From Minisyncoccia bacterium (lineage in GTDB: Bacteria; Patescibacteriota; Minisyncoccia; Phycocordibacterales; UBA918): DNA of 64,000 nucleotides. The stretch spans positions 171,446 through 235,445 of the forward strand of contig JBKBPM010000001.1 in NCBI GenBank assembly GCA_046293175.1. The letters are read 5' to 3'. The notes below the pieces were generated by a model, which did not search any database, was not told the DNA's origin, and saw only the letters and a list, made by a program, of their open reading frames with translations. Shown here piece after piece: positions 4,084 through 51,765 of the stretch. Positions within the stretch are counted from its first letter, which is position 1, and each line of letters opens with the position of its first letter. The translations under genes and the position numbers were made by a program.

Positions 4084-4105
4084 AACGTACAACAAGTACG
4101 CCTCA
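4084..4105. repeat. copy 1 of the recurring intergenic motif GTACA-N5-GTACRCCTCA
   Basis: The sequence AACGTACAACAAGTACGCCTCA sits upstream of the ATP synthase operon. See the other copies at 5684, 5811, 44322 and 51743. Confidence 0.5.
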
Positions 4106-4189
4106 TCTTATTCCTCCTTGACACCTCGAATATGGGGCTTCTGATGAACTCTAAAATGATAATAGATAGTTAGTGGTAAACTTATACAT

Positions 4190-4414
4190 ATGCACGAAAC
4201 AAAACGTCGGAGTTTACTGAAAGGGCTTACCTGGCGCATCACGGCCTCGATCACGACGATGCTCATTGTGCTCATAATGACCGGAAACCTTACTCTAGTC
4301 GCTGGCGTCGGACTGGCTGATGTGACCCTTAAGGTCTTGTTTTACTACGTCCATGAGCGGCTATGGGGAAGGGTCCATTGGGGAATTCTTGGCCTGGAAC
4401 CTCATATTAAATAG
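4190..4414 (+). CDS. small membrane protein (DUF2061-like)
   Basis: The 74-aa ORF contains ...LTWRITASITTMLIV... and two TM helices. It sits immediately upstream of atpB, in the position often occupied by AtpI-like or DUF2061 proteins. Confidence 0.4.
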   Translation: MHETKRRSLLKGLTWRITASITTMLIVLIMTGNLTLVAGVGLADVTLKVLFYYVHERLWGRVHWGILGLEPHIK

Positions 4415-4435
4415 CATTATTACCACACCTCAGCG

Positions 4436-4463
4436 TTGCAAAACCTCGATTTTCTGGTATCAT
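4436..4463 (+). promoter_or_regulatory. sigma70-like promoter for the atp operon
   Basis: TTGCAA (4436-4441) is followed by a 16-nt spacer and then TGgTATCAT, an extended -10 at 4455-4463. Confidence 0.4.
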
Positions 4464-4502
4464 GCGGGCGCATAAGGTATCTCCTCGTGCGCTTTACTGT
4501 TC

Positions 4503-5291
4503 ATGTCACTAATCGCAACCGCTTACGCTGCTGAATCTGCCCATGGGGGTATTCACGTTGCTCTCGCACCTTACGTGGTGGGACATGTCTTTGGCGTACC
4601 AATTACCTCAACTTTGATTACCGCTTGGGTTGGGATGCTGATTTTGACCGTTATTGCCGTCCTCGTCCGGCACCGCCTCGCCCTGGTACCTGGCAAGCTC
4701 CAGAGTGTCATAGAAATGATGATTGGTGGCGTTTACGACTACATGGCTGACGTACTTGAGAGTCGCGCTCTGGCTCAGAAGTATTTCGGGGTTGTGATGA
4801 CGATTTTCATTTTTATCCTTACTCTCAACTGGTTTGGGCTTTTTCCGGGTGTTACTTCAATTGGACAGTATGTTGAATACAACGGTAGTGAAAAATTTAT
4901 TCCGTACCTCTATCCAGCCGCGACAGATCTCAATATCACCCTCGCATTTGCGCTGATTGCGTTCTTTACTATCCAATTTTCCGGTATCGCTGCTATTGGT
5001 GCGTTTAAGTACGCGGGGAAGTTTATTAACTTCTCTTCGCCTTTGGCGTTTGCTGTGGGTATCATTGAGCTTATCTCCGAAATCGCCCGCCTCATTTCGT
5101 TCTCATTCCGACTCTTTGGAAATATCTTTGCGGGGAAGACGCTCCTCGTCGTGATCATGTTCTTTGTGCCCTACGTGGTTCCTGTGCCAATTATGGCGTT
5201 TGAAGTCTTCGTCGGATTCATCCAAGCTTTTGTGTTTGCGATTTTGACGTTGTTCTTTATCAAGATTGCGACCGAAGAACCAGCACACTAG
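4503..5291 (+). CDS. atpB: F0F1 ATP synthase subunit a
   Basis: The polytopic membrane protein carries the RLFGNIFAG motif containing the essential Arg. Confidence 0.85.
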   Translation: MSLIATAYAAESAHGGIHVALAPYVVGHVFGVPITSTLITAWVGMLILTVIAVLVRHRLALVPGKLQSVIEMMIGGVYDYMADVLESRALAQKYFGVVMTIFIFILTLNWFGLFPGVTSIGQYVEYNGSEKFIPYLYPAATDLNITLAFALIAFFTIQFSGIAAIGAFKYAGKFINFSSPLAFAVGIIELISEIARLISFSFRLFGNIFAGKTLLVVIMFFVPYVVPVPIMAFEVFVGFIQAFVFAILTLFFIKIATEEPAH

Positions 5292-5370
5292 TGGCTGATA
5301 ACGAGCGGTGAAGTCTATTCACCCCTCGCGTTGTCCACTAGAAGTTTTAAAAAATATTTTCACACAAAAT

Positions 5371-5634
5371 ATGACAGAACTAGAATTGGCCTTACAGGCT
5401 GCAGAACTGAGTGCCGAAGCCGTGAAGTCTATCGCTATGGCGATTGCTATCGGTGTTGGTGTATTCGGTCCAGGTATTGGTATTGGTCTTCTTGTGTCTA
5501 AGGCACTTGAGTCAATCGGCCGCAACCCAGAAGCAGCGAAGCAGGTAATGACTCCGATGTTTATCGGTATTGCAGCGGTAGAAGCGCTTGCTATTTTTGC
5601 TCTCCTGGTCGCATTTGTCATCAAGTTCGCCTAG
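5371..5634 (+). CDS. atpE: F0F1 ATP synthase subunit c
   Basis: This hairpin proteolipid has the GxGxGxG motif and the conserved carboxylate in [11 protein letters not shown]. The start was moved to the internal ATG (MTELELALQ...) in the same frame as ORF 5308..5634. Confidence 0.85.
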
Positions 5635-49446: not shown

Positions 49447-49451
49447 TAATT

Positions 49452-51152
49452 ATGTGGCGACGCAAAACACAACAAACTGTTGAGTTCGATGAAATCCTCA
49501 TGGATGTATCGAACCTCCCAGCCTTTAATACTGGTCGCCTTGAGGGACGACGCGAACTACCAATTACCAAGCGGAGTATCTTTCTCGTTGGTCTCATTTT
49601 TAGTTTTATTGCTCTTGCCTTTCTCTCAAAGATTTATAGTTTACAAATAGTGGAGGGTGCCAAGTACCGCGAGATTAGTGAAAACAACAGTCTCAATCGT
49701 ACCGTTATTATTGCTGAGCGAGGCGTCGTGTATGACCGTCGTGGTGAACTAGTGATTTGGAACGAGCCTGATTTTACAGGGCAATACTCGTTTCCTGTTC
49801 GGGCTTACACCGATCGTCTTGGTATGGGGCAACTCATTGGGTACGTGAGTTATCCGCAAAAAGATAAAAAGGGCGTCTACTACCGTACCGAGTACGTTGG
49901 CCGGACCGGGGTGGAAAGTGCATTTGAGTCATACTTGCGCGGCCAAAATGGCGAGCAGATAATCGAAGAGGATGTGCATGGCACCGTGGTGGGAGAATAC
50001 GCGCTTAAAGCGCCTGTGCCCGGCGGTGAACTGCATCTCTCGGTTGATGCGGGGCTCTCTGAGGCCATGTACCAGATTATTTCGACCTCCAGTGCCCAGG
50101 CTGGTTTCCGGAGTGGAGCGGGTGCCATTATGGATGTATATACCGGTGAGATTATCGCGATGACCAGTTTTCCATCTTATGACCCAGAGGTAATGGCCGA
50201 TGGCGACAATACCGATTTGATTTCGTCTTACAACACTGACGACCGCCTACCGTTCCTCAATAAGGTGGTGAGTGGTGTCTATACCCCAGGATCAATCGTA
50301 AAGCCGTTTGTGGCGTATGGAGCACTTGCCGAAGATATCATTAGTCCAAACAAAGAAATTGTTTCAACCGGTGAAATTGTTATTCCAAATCCATACAATC
50401 CCGATCAACCTTCGATTTTTCGTGACTGGCGCGCTCATGGAGTGATGACGATGCGTGAAGCAATTGCGTTTTCATCTAACGTTTATTTCTATATTGTCGG
50501 TGGTGGCTTTGGAGATCAAAAGGGACTGGGTATCACAAAGCTTGCTGAGTACTATCGCAAATTTGGGATGGGGAGTATCACCGGTATCAATCTAGCTACC
50601 GAACAAGAAGGGGTGGTGCCTGACCCAGAGTGGAAACAAAAAACCTTTAATGATGATTGGCGGCTTGGGGACACGTACTTCACCTCTATTGGGCAGTATG
50701 GCTTTCAGGTGACACCACTGCAGATGCTTCGAGCGTATGCTGCGCTCGCTAATGGTGGGAAACTCCTTACTCCACATGTCGTGAAGGGACAAGTGAGTTC
50801 TTCGACAGATCTCGGCTTAAATCCCAATTATCTAAAAATCATACACGAAGGTATGCGTAAGAGCGTGATCTTTCCTGGTGGTACGGCACGTGGTCTCGAA
50901 CGCAGTGATGTAGCGGTAGCGGCAAAATCTGGTACTGCCGAAATTGGTGCTGGTAACGCGTACGTGAATTCTTGGGCGGCTGGTTTTTGGCCATACGAAG
51001 AACCACGCTACGCTTTTATTCTCATGATGGATAAAGCGCCACGGAGTAATGCGCTTGGTGCGACTCGTATCATGGGTGGGGTAATGGAATGGATAGCGCA
51101 GAATCGACCGGAGTATCTAAACCCAACCAGTACGCCGATGGTAGGTGGATAA
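49452..51152 (+). CDS. mrdA: penicillin-binding protein 2 (elongasome transpeptidase)
   Basis: An N-terminal TM helix is followed by the three PBP boxes: SxxK (PGSIVKPF), SxN (FSSNVYF) and KTG (KSGTAE). Confidence 0.85.
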   Translation: MWRRKTQQTVEFDEILMDVSNLPAFNTGRLEGRRELPITKRSIFLVGLIFSFIALAFLSKIYSLQIVEGAKYREISENNSLNRTVIIAERGVVYDRRGELVIWNEPDFTGQYSFPVRAYTDRLGMGQLIGYVSYPQKDKKGVYYRTEYVGRTGVESAFESYLRGQNGEQIIEEDVHGTVVGEYALKAPVPGGELHLSVDAGLSEAMYQIISTSSAQAGFRSGAGAIMDVYTGEIIAMTSFPSYDPEVMADGDNTDLISSYNTDDRLPFLNKVVSGVYTPGSIVKPFVAYGALAEDIISPNKEIVSTGEIVIPNPYNPDQPSIFRDWRAHGVMTMREAIAFSSNVYFYIVGGGFGDQKGLGITKLAEYYRKFGMGSITGINLATEQEGVVPDPEWKQKTFNDDWRLGDTYFTSIGQYGFQVTPLQMLRAYAALANGGKLLTPHVVKGQVSSSTDLGLNPNYLKIIHEGMRKSVIFPGGTARGLERSDVAVAAKSGTAEIGAGNAYVNSWAAGFWPYEEPRYAFILMMDKAPRSNALGATRIMGGVMEWIAQNRPEYLNPTSTPMVGG

Positions 51153-51161
51153 GTCGCTGTG

Positions 51162-51189
51162 TTGACCATCACCCGGAAGTCCGTATAAT
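51162..51189 (+). promoter_or_regulatory. sigma70 promoter for greA (TTGACC-16-TATAAT)
   Basis: TTGACC at 51162-51167 is separated by a 16-nt spacer from TATAAT at 51184-51189. A second -10-like TATAAC (51206-51211) lies 7 nt before the ATG. Confidence 0.5.
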
Positions 51190-51218
51190 AGTGTTACATT
51201 ACTTGTATAACGTTCTAT

Positions 51219-51689
51219 ATGACTGACCAGCAATCGTTCCTTACTGCCGAAAAGTTCGCAGAATTGAAACAAGAACTCGACCACCTGAAGACTGTCCGCC
51301 GCAAAGAAGTGGCAGAGTCACTCGAATACGCTCGCAGTCTCGGTGACCTCTCAGAAAATGCTGAATACCAAGAAGCCCGTGATATGCAGGCTGCTATTGA
51401 GGAACGTATCACTCACCTCGAAAAAGTTATTAAAGAAGCGAAGATTGTCTCGCACGACAAGAAAGGTGACATCGTAGTTATGGGTTCTACCGTAACGATT
51501 GTGAAGGACAAAGAAAAAGATAGTCGCACCTACACAATGGTTGGTTCAGAAGAAGCGAACATCCACGAGCATAAGCTTTCATATCTCTCACCACTTGGTG
51601 AAGCTCTCATGGGGAAGGCGAAGGGTGATGAGTTTGTGTTTGAGACTCCAGCGGGCAAACAAAAGTACAAAGTACTTAAGGTCGAATAA
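51219..51689 (+). CDS. greA: transcription elongation factor GreA
   Basis: An N-terminal coiled coil containing SENAEYQEARDMQ is followed by a C-terminal FKBP-like domain. Confidence 0.9.
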   Translation: MTDQQSFLTAEKFAELKQELDHLKTVRRKEVAESLEYARSLGDLSENAEYQEARDMQAAIEERITHLEKVIKEAKIVSHDKKGDIVVMGSTVTIVKDKEKDSRTYTMVGSEEANIHEHKLSYLSPLGEALMGKAKGDEFVFETPAGKQKYKVLKVE

Positions 51690-51742
51690 CAGTTGTCCAT
51701 AAAATGTCCAGCTACGGTGTTGCACTACGCTCGACGTCAGTC

Positions 51743-51765
51743 ATCGTACAATAAGTACGCCTCCT
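51743..51765. repeat. copy 5 of the recurring motif (GTACA-N5-GTACGCCTCC variant)
   Basis: CATCGTACAATAAGTACGCCTCC lies in the greA-lysS spacer. Compare copy 1 at 4084. Confidence 0.45.

Follow-up and report, generated by a model that had tools for sequence, protein, structure and literature searches.

What is a short motif that recurs in the spacers between genes: the binding site of a regulator, a structure in the transcript, or a repeat with a history of its own? The question is raised by a 64,000-nt stretch of the genome of a Minisyncoccia bacterium (GenBank assembly GCA_046293175.1, contig JBKBPM010000001.1, positions 171,446 to 235,445 of the forward strand), referred to here as the window, and by a motif within it composed of two GTAC boxes followed by CCTC. 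An initial annotation read the boxes as direct repeats one helical turn apart at six intergenic sites, and suggested either the binding site of a global regulator or an RNA element with an anti-Shine-Dalgarno-like tail. The motif is instead part of a rod-shaped hairpin of 117-153 nt, in which it forms the apical stem (YGTAC/GTACR) and one strand (CCTC) of an internal loop. The hairpins, termed rods below, form a family of structured repeats that is absent from Rfam 15 and of which no description was found in the searchable literature. They add a strongly supported structured repeat to the candidate phyla radiation (CPR), in which hardly any non-coding elements have been described, and they advise caution in the inference of regulons from motifs, since a self-complementary core such as GTAC can disguise the arms of a hairpin as direct repeats one turn apart.

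Five rod-shaped hairpins in the window

The pattern GTAC-N{3,12}-GTACRCCTC has six exact matches in the window, against an expectation of 0.02 from dinucleotide-preserving shuffles: five on the + strand (4087, 5687, 5815, 44326 and 51746) and one on the - strand (30151-30167). Non-coding DNA makes up approximately 10% of the window, yet contains five of the six. The 9-mer GTACRCCTC alone, with one mismatch allowed, is barely over chance (31 matches, 20 expected). The five + strand copies are homologous over approximately 120 nt, as found by nhmmer with a profile hidden Markov model (HMM) built from these five (E 1e-21 to 1e-26), and a covariance model (CM) run over the whole window with filters off scored them at 79-104 bits and everything else at 12.5 bits or below. 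Five of the six sites first listed are therefore members; the remaining one, a supposed half-site upstream of proS (45734-45750), has one mismatch to the 9-mer (at 45737), gave no nhmmer or CM match and was rejected. The exact match on the - strand, which the initial annotation had missed, lies inside the open reading frame (ORF) 29486-30418, had an nhmmer E of 2.8 and no match in the CM search, and is a chance occurrence. All five members are intergenic, as had been claimed for every site, and the motif is not as frequent in coding DNA. The distance from GTAC to GTAC, first given as 9-10 bp, is 9-11 nt.

The two boxes are the arms of a stem of 5-7 bp with a loop of 5-7 nt, and they resembled a direct repeat because GTAC is its own reverse complement. 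At related loci the paired boxes read TGTAC/GTACA, CGTAC/GTACG, CGTAT/ATACG, CCGTAT/ATACGG, CCATAC/GTATGG or TGTAT/ATACA. Across 27-29 homologous copies they change in mirror image and not in parallel, which rules out a direct repeat for a transcription factor of the WalR/OmpR, LytTR or CtsR-like type. At its base the rod has a long helix with little sequence conservation between CPR copies, and in many copies the first basal pairs are formed by the stop codon of the upstream gene and its complement (TAG...CTA, or TGATGGC...GCCATCA in the phage copies described below). The next feature inward is a conserved internal loop, with CTNC-TTCGTTG on the top strand opposite CGCCTYGNAT, followed by a short helix and then by an A/U-rich helix of 7-12 bp, the sequence of which differs in nearly every copy. 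A second internal loop, with TCAA on the top strand opposite CCTC, lies nearer the tip. The conserved blocks of the rod are CTNCTTCGTTG and CGCCTYGNAT, and the outer loop looks like a degenerate copy of the TCAA/CCTC loop, so that the two loops may be homologous. The proposal of an RNA element thus came closer than that of a regulator site, in that the motif belongs to a structured single-strand element, with CCTC(A) as the 3' strand of the inner loop. The tail cannot be regarded as free, however: in the phage sister family its two C's are Watson-Crick paired, and on the opposite strand, which the pair statistics favour, it reads GAGG.

Individual copies fold, as single sequences, into rods of 117-153 nt with energies of -35 to -78 kcal/mol. 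RNAalifold found compensatory changes in 18 of 23 pairs in one alignment (A2) and in 23 of 25 pairs in another (A4, 27 copies). Among the 27 copies, 90.5% of the cells are standard pairs, compared with 64.6% in shuffles, and the covariation score is 0.697, compared with 0.212, with none of 500 shuffles as high. As a control, sliding the partners by 1-3 columns lowered the score to 0.17 or less. A rod directly after lysS at L141:11497-11703 (L numbers denote loci of relatives and phage contigs) carries an insertion of approximately 75 nt with extra hairpins in the apical loop.

Known RNA structures were also compared. At the gathering score, Rfam 15 gave no match in the whole window, including the T-box, which might have been expected near lysS or proS, and permissive E-value searches with four phage-contig loci and with copies 2 and 3 of the window gave nothing beyond spurious microRNA- or snoRNA-like rods. 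A T-box or other leader for lysS or proS was rejected on this absence of an Rfam match and on the attachment of the element to the upstream gene. A kink-turn does not fit either loop, as the inner loop of the bottom strand is a symmetric GAGG/UUGA without a bulge, and the outer loop, on inspection of alignment A4, has no GA beside the canonical stem on the unbulged strand; the loop E motif was not matched.

The coordinates of the five rods, all co-oriented with the + strand genes that precede them, are as follows. Copy 1 (4030-4158; 94.6 bits in the CM search) occupies the spacer between pgi and DUF2061-atpB; its minimum free energy (MFE) rod is 4034-4152, its basal helix begins at the pgi stop codon (4032-4034), and its motif (4086-4105) consists of CGTAC 4086-4090, GTACG 4096-4100 and the loop side CCTCA 4101-4105. 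Copies 2 and 3 stand in tandem between atpE and atpF. Copy 2 (5630-5759; 100 bits) begins at the atpE stop codon TAG (5632-5634) and has the motif TGTAC 5686-5690, GTACA 5698-5702 and CCTCA 5703-5707. Copy 3 (5760-5887; 79.2 bits with filters off) has an MFE rod at 5757-5883, just behind a TAG (5755-5757) that closes no ORF, and its motif is TGTAC 5814-5818, GTACA 5825-5829 and CCTCA 5830-5834. Copy 4 (44267-44396; 87.9 bits), with TGTAC 44325-44329, GTACA 44336-44340 and CCTCA 44341-44345, lies between the gene of an RseP-like M50 peptidase (43177-44271; Pfam PF02163), to which it is directly 3', and a yerC-like gene. Copy 5 (51685-51817; 103.6 bits), with CGTAC 51745-51749, GTACG 51755-51759 and CCTCC 51760-51764, is directly 3' of greA and 5' of the greA terminator and lysS. 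A degenerate or partial copy (19297-19414; nhmmer E 0.03; CM 12.5 bits, E 1.1) follows a MIP-family gene (18710-19294) in a convergent spacer; it retains the 5' conserved block GACTTTGTTGCG, and its apical part is replaced by a different hairpin of 19 bp (ATAAGAACAG.CCAAT...).

Gene ends and the folded strand

The genes initially assigned to the sites were roughly correct (pgi/DUF2061-atpB, atpE/atpF twice, the yerC-like gene and lysS), but the gene to which the element is anchored is the one upstream and not the one downstream. When the genes around each CPR and phage-contig match were called by a simple gene call, 27 of 31 CPR matches and 14 of 17 phage-contig matches started at the stop codon of the gene before them or overlapped it by a few bases, while the distance to the next gene ranged from 7 to 942 nt. 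In all 48 scored copies the strand of the upstream gene is that of the element. The upstream genes in the window are pgi, atpE (with two tandem copies), the gene of the RseP-like peptidase and greA; in relatives they include atpE, atpD, atpG, greA, lysS and others.

The greA locus places the rod within a transcript. A promoter-like site, TTGACC-16-TATAAT (51162-51189, + strand), defines a monocistronic unit in which greA (51219-51689) is followed by the rod (51691-51812 as part of this unit) and by a GC-rich palindromic intrinsic terminator (51869-51906, + strand; a stem of 17 bp in a terminator scan). Because the terminator lies downstream of rod 5, the sense greA transcript would include the rod. 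Relatives keep the order of stop codon, rod and terminator at greA, and the terminators are sense-oriented (+) in L129, L109 and L102, lying 8-12 nt past the rod in the first two. Rods are found also inside atp operons and inside phage late operons, including the terS/terL and exonuclease/recT junctions. The position of the terminator and the intra-operon copies together argue strongly that the sense mRNA runs through the rod.

For the CPR copies an intrinsic terminator was considered and rejected, as these are rods of 117-153 nt with an A/U-rich middle helix and have no U-tract on either strand; in phage copies, U-rich tracts follow the rod on the sense strand. A sigma-70 promoter made up of block C (TTGNNN) and TGNTATAAT, 55-56 nt downstream, was rejected for its wrong spacing of 29 bp, and TGNTATAAT as a promoter box is not conserved in relatives and in copy 5 sits between rod and terminator. 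The spacer between rod 5 and the greA terminator holds a perfect extended -10 sequence, TGATATAAT (51817-51825, + strand), from which only a transcript of approximately 75 nt would be possible before the terminator, and which is not conserved in L082 or L084. Further downstream, the ORF finder placed the start of lysS at GTG 51878, a position within the greA terminator or upstream of it. The start that is conserved is the ATG at 51950; 9 nt before it stands a -10-like TACTAT(A), likewise conserved (TACTAT 51935-51940; TGCGCTACTATA in relatives), and lysS therefore looks leaderless or nearly so. For annotation, rods mark gene ends, correct the start of lysS and separate spacers that arose by repeat insertion from promoters.

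The strand that folds best is not that of the mRNA. The reverse complement folds more stably in 30 of 30 copies, by a mean of 14.9 kcal/mol, and RNAalifold gave, for the same alignments, -15.6 on the sense strand against -30.2 on the antisense strand, and -14.3 against -22.0. Part of the difference is accounted for by the inner loop of the bottom strand, where GAGG/UUGA can form two G.U pairs and tandem G.A. Because the conserved loops contribute in this way, the rod arms were aligned with a score that treats both strands alike, and a mismatch was counted only where it stood alone between Watson-Crick pairs. Over 29 CPR copies the sense strand had 75 A.C mismatches (equal to G.U on the antisense strand) and 21 G.U pairs, and 52 pyrimidine-pyrimidine and 19 purine-purine mismatches, and the asymmetry is equal on both arms of the rod and present in intra-operon copies. 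The C.A/C.A of the inner loop in the CPR family corresponds to C-G/C-G in the phage family, which looks like a change from G.U to G-C on the bottom strand. An artefact of a general bias towards antisense folding was rejected with 2361 control gene ends from all fetched loci (-35.2 kcal/mol sense, -33.9 antisense), and mutational bias was rejected as the cause, as other intergenic DNA of the window has more G than C on the + strand and the rods have more C than G. It is thus the complement of the mRNA strand on which the fold is optimised. A small reverse-strand ORF in copy 3 (GAGG-N7-ATG) was rejected, as it is not conserved in other copies, and a scan of all gene ends for other families of long hairpins was unspecific, as downstream coding sequence also folds.

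Spread of the rods and their possible nature

The window belongs to a CPR bacterium near Ca. Kaiserbacteria. Its AtpD is 97%, 91% and 90% identical to those of three uncultured metagenome-assembled genomes, one of which is labelled Kaiserbacteria, and the gene content of the window is that of an ordinary small chromosome. Within CPR, the rod family is found in Kaiserbacteria-like genomes, especially behind greA and at junctions of the atp operon; nhmmer and the CM found 13 matches in atp loci (10 of them training copies) and 16 in lysS loci. Orthologous spacers retain the element, at greA/lysS in at least 12 loci and at atpE/atpF in at least four genomes, and the greA copies orthologous to copy 5 include those of L082, L084, L083, L087 and L085, together with more distant loci. 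A pattern scan of IMG/VR followed by the CM added 17 full-length matches in tailed-phage contigs.

A sister family was observed in lambda-like tailed-phage contigs (L196, L237, L187, L198, L175, L223, L225 and L177). The flanking phage genes, by PHROGs, encode terminase subunits, an exonuclease, RecT and a head-closure or connector protein; the junctions that carry the rod are those of terS/terL and of exonuclease/RecT, where the stop codon TGA supplies the first 3 bp of the stem. In these copies even the basal helix is conserved from one to another. The large terminase subunit shares approximately 40% identity with its counterparts in Wolbachia WO and Roseobacter phages, a blastn search with one phage copy against INPHARED gave no match, and searches of the literature on RNA motifs and Rho in CPR and on intergenic palindromes of phages found no description of the element. 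The sister family might link these phages to CPR hosts, or serve as a phage-host marker.

Copies have been gained or lost at given junctions. The atpD/atpC junction is empty, with a spacer of 3-25 nt, in the window and in L002, L004, L005, L006 and L007, and is filled by a rod in L003, L008, L009 and L019, where the C-terminus of AtpD is unchanged or longer by a few residues. The atpE/atpF junction is empty in L005 (spacer of 26 nt), has one rod in L007, L008, L009 and L011 and has two in the window; in L006 the same spacer holds a different long inverted repeat (6344-6460; TTGGTGC...GCACCA), unrecognised by the CM, which may be a diverged or an unrelated hairpin. L007 has two copies 1.7 kb apart (18464 and 20183); they share approximately 85% identity between TAA/TAG and CTA, the limits of the rod, outside which their sequences are unrelated, and their basal helices differ by compensatory changes. 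Similarity is likewise confined to the rod, between unrelated flanks, in the two copies of L008 and in the phage copies. Judged from these comparisons, the rods are discrete units whose ends are complementary, and the several copies (five in 64 kb) stand in unrelated surroundings. The greA copies cluster by orthology (identity of 0.86 between window and L084 and 0.73 between window and L082), and rod 4, after rseP, has its closest relatives in the greA copies of L083 and L087; this clustering, together with similarity across loci, points to long vertical inheritance with occasional copying to new sites flush with stop codons.

Our preferred reading, tentatively held, is that the rods are a new palindromic intergenic repeat family of the REP/ERIC/Correia kind, co-transcribed with genes and kept as a hairpin. 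The family would duplicate to new sites flush with stop codons and then be inherited vertically over long periods, the hairpin being maintained by compensatory change while it is co-transcribed with the upstream gene. If the rod acts at all, it would do so as a folded single strand at the ends of cistrons, through the hairpin and the two conserved loops, and the loops could be contact points for a common factor or a mobilising enzyme. In the sense mRNA it would be a 3' or intercistronic hairpin that may affect decay, processing or read-through. Optimisation of the bottom strand could come from a single-stranded bottom-strand intermediate, of DNA or of antisense RNA, or from the survival of only those insertions that give the mRNA the weaker CACCUC and not the Shine-Dalgarno-like GAGGUG.

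The rods share features with several known repeats. ERIC/IRU and Correia (NEMIS) elements are, like the rods, imperfect intergenic palindromes of approximately 100-150 bp that occur in multiple copies and are co-transcribed, form long hairpins in the transcript, show filled and empty sites, and are discrete units with complementary ends; Correia elements are flanked by TA...TA, as are the youngest rods. However, the rods have no sequence similarity to them, keep their pairing at low identity among copies, take one orientation to genes, start at the stop codon, fold better opposite the mRNA and have no known cognate transposase. REP and REPIN sequences are also extragenic palindromes just after stop codons, with long vertical inheritance, single-strand hairpins and presumed strand-specific recognition. 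A REP, however, is approximately 35 nt long with a 5' GTAG, and a REPIN joins two conserved REPs around a variable centre, whereas the rods have a conserved centre and loops with variable ends and no short palindrome headed by GTAG, and the 64-kb window has no RAYT/Y1 transposase. The rods thus resemble known palindromic repeats and differ from them in being orientation-locked, flush with stop codons, low in sequence conservation and optimised on the strand that is not the mRNA; position at the stop codon, orientation in 48 of 48 copies, co-transcription and an opposite-strand fold are together unexplained by any known class of intergenic repeat.

Several observations weigh against a repeat of this kind. 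The basal helices of CPR copies have a mean column identity of 58% and only weak similarity between copies, and their pairing is kept by compensatory change; the greA position is retained down to approximately 58-70% LysRS identity. These two facts argue that selection acts on the structure, and hence that the rod serves the host and is not a purely selfish repeat. Neither a transposase, RAYT/Y1, HUH enzyme nor integrase was found in the 64-kb window. No consistent target-site duplication was seen; TA...TA flanks occur in approximately 4-5 of 12 inspected copies (L007 twice, L008 and window copy 2 among them), and the TA cannot be told apart from the terminal base pairs, to which, as to the stop codon, it belongs. 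The single orientation (48/48) combined with bottom-strand optimisation fits no known transposition mechanism. Mobile elements of the IS200/IS605 type would have the folded strand on the lagging-strand template. This rule conflicts with the rods because GC skew suggests that the lagging-strand template is the + strand; by GC skew and the skews at fourfold sites, the bottom strand is likely to be the leading-strand template.

A bolder reading, and a somewhat unlikely one, is that the rods are an asymmetric, orientation-locked signal on the strand opposite the genes, common to CPR bacteria and their phages. As a one-way hairpin, the rod would stop or mark transcription running backwards into the 3' ends of genes and let operon transcription pass; as an attC-like site, it would be a bottom-strand DNA structure at which an enzyme moves or exchanges modules at gene ends.

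Not very likely either is a dedicated host element in the sense mRNA, acting by 3' exonuclease protection, RNase III-type processing, partial termination or termination-initiation coupling. Such an element would set expression ratios, with atpE (c-ring) above atpF and atpD (beta) above atpC, and its pyrimidine-rich loops (CCUC, CGCCUYG) would bind a host factor. It accords with the constant position of the rod between stop codon and sense terminator and within operons, with its place after subunits needed in more copies (atpE/atpF, atpD/atpC), with the U-rich sense tracts after phage copies, with the lack of a conserved antisense promoter (for which some copies leave no room) and with the sharing of the element by host and phage, as expected of a signal read by host machinery. 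Intercistronic hairpins such as the RNase III sites of phage T7, the malE-malF REP and those of the puf operon likewise have internal loops and stand between cistrons after the more expressed gene. Those stabilisers, however, are selected in the sense RNA, and the pair statistics of the rod favour the antisense strand: sense G.U is depleted relative to A.C, mismatches are pyrimidine-pyrimidine rather than purine-purine, and the change in phages from C.A/C.A to C-G/C-G is one from G.U to G-C on the other strand. The rod is moreover dispensable at a given junction, where close relatives have spacers of 3-25 nt, and at greA it is redundant with a canonical terminator.

The same statistics would be met directly by a hairpin in antisense RNA, either a one-way insulator that stops, marks or stabilises antisense transcripts or itself one of a family of cis-antisense RNAs. 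Such a hairpin would be strong in transcripts that enter the 3' end of a gene from behind and weak by design in the sense mRNA. No other model at the level of transcripts explains the optimisation of the bottom strand and the purine-rich loops with tandem G.A and G.U, and it also explains a G-rich bottom strand where the top strand of other intergenic DNA has G in excess of C. It is nevertheless quite unlikely. When the - strand of 29 copies was aligned over the 50 nt before the hairpin base, no consistent -10/-35 emerged, and the orthologous greA copies have no conserved antisense promoter block; in favour of the model, a -10-like hexamer lies 6-8 nt before the base on that strand in three window copies. 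The gap between the rod and the next start codon is as small as 7-24 nt in some copies of operons and phages, which leaves no room for an antisense promoter, although an insulator would need none of its own. On the - strand, bidirectional terminators immediately precede the rod in L087, L083 and the window, and the hairpin has no U-tract after it; a rod of 130 nt with conserved loops is much more elaborate than a terminator.

A folded single-stranded DNA site on the bottom strand, comparable to integron attC, the attP of CTX phage or single-strand initiation signals and serving recombination, mobilisation or priming, is very unlikely. Like attC (57-141 nt), the rods conserve structure and not sequence, are imperfect palindromes of 60-150 nt that abut or overlap the stop codon of an ORF in their own orientation, and fold on the bottom strand, the functional strand of attC, into helix, internal loop, helix and variable tip. 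G.T and tandem G.A are tolerated in DNA hairpins too, and the duplication of copies and their presence in phages fit a process at the level of DNA. Unlike attC, the rods have no R''/R' core sites (RYYYAAC/GTTRRRY), since the conserved blocks CTNCTTCGTTG and CGCCTYGNAT are not inverse core sites. Their neighbours (atp, greA, lysS, pgi, rseP or phage structural and recombination genes) are not cassettes, the bacterial ones being housekeeping genes in conserved synteny, and no integrase or HUH enzyme is encoded in the window. The bottom strand, as probable leading-strand template, would rarely be single-stranded, and an orientation that follows genes in 48 of 48 copies is stricter than a replication-linked rule predicts.

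A double-stranded operator with two direct GTAC(A) half-sites for a global regulator (a response regulator, or a TrmB- or YerC-like protein), suggested by spacing of 9-11 bp and five intergenic copies, is exceedingly improbable, as the half-sites vary in mirror image (CGTAT...ATACG, CCATAC...GTATGG) and never in parallel, conservation spans 117-153 nt as paired helices, the start is fixed to the upstream stop codon and not to any promoter or downstream start (7-942 nt), and copies lie inside operons and at phage late-gene junctions.

Other features of the window

Between rod 4 and the yerC-like gene lies an A/T-rich perfect palindrome (44436-44477) with arms of 20 bp (AAGCAAAAACTTTCTATCAT-AC-ATGATAGAAAGTTTTTGCTT). 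It carries a -10-like TATCAT/ATGATA on both strands and may serve as an operator, as a promoter for both directions or as a terminator. The atp operon (4190-11089) is unusual in its proportions, with a DUF2061 membrane protein in the place of atpI, and short delta (125 aa) and epsilon (107 aa) subunits. The two tandem rods fill its atpE-atpF spacer of 298 nt. A Shine-Dalgarno sequence is clear for atpC (GAGGTG) and absent for atpF. A single giant ORF (54777-62804; 2675 aa) is typical of large CPR surface proteins. A type IV coupling ATPase of the VirD4/TraG-like type (34394-37159) adjoins two large proteins (37165-40092 and 40405-41940) that have no Pfam domain, and the group may be a module for DNA transfer or uptake.

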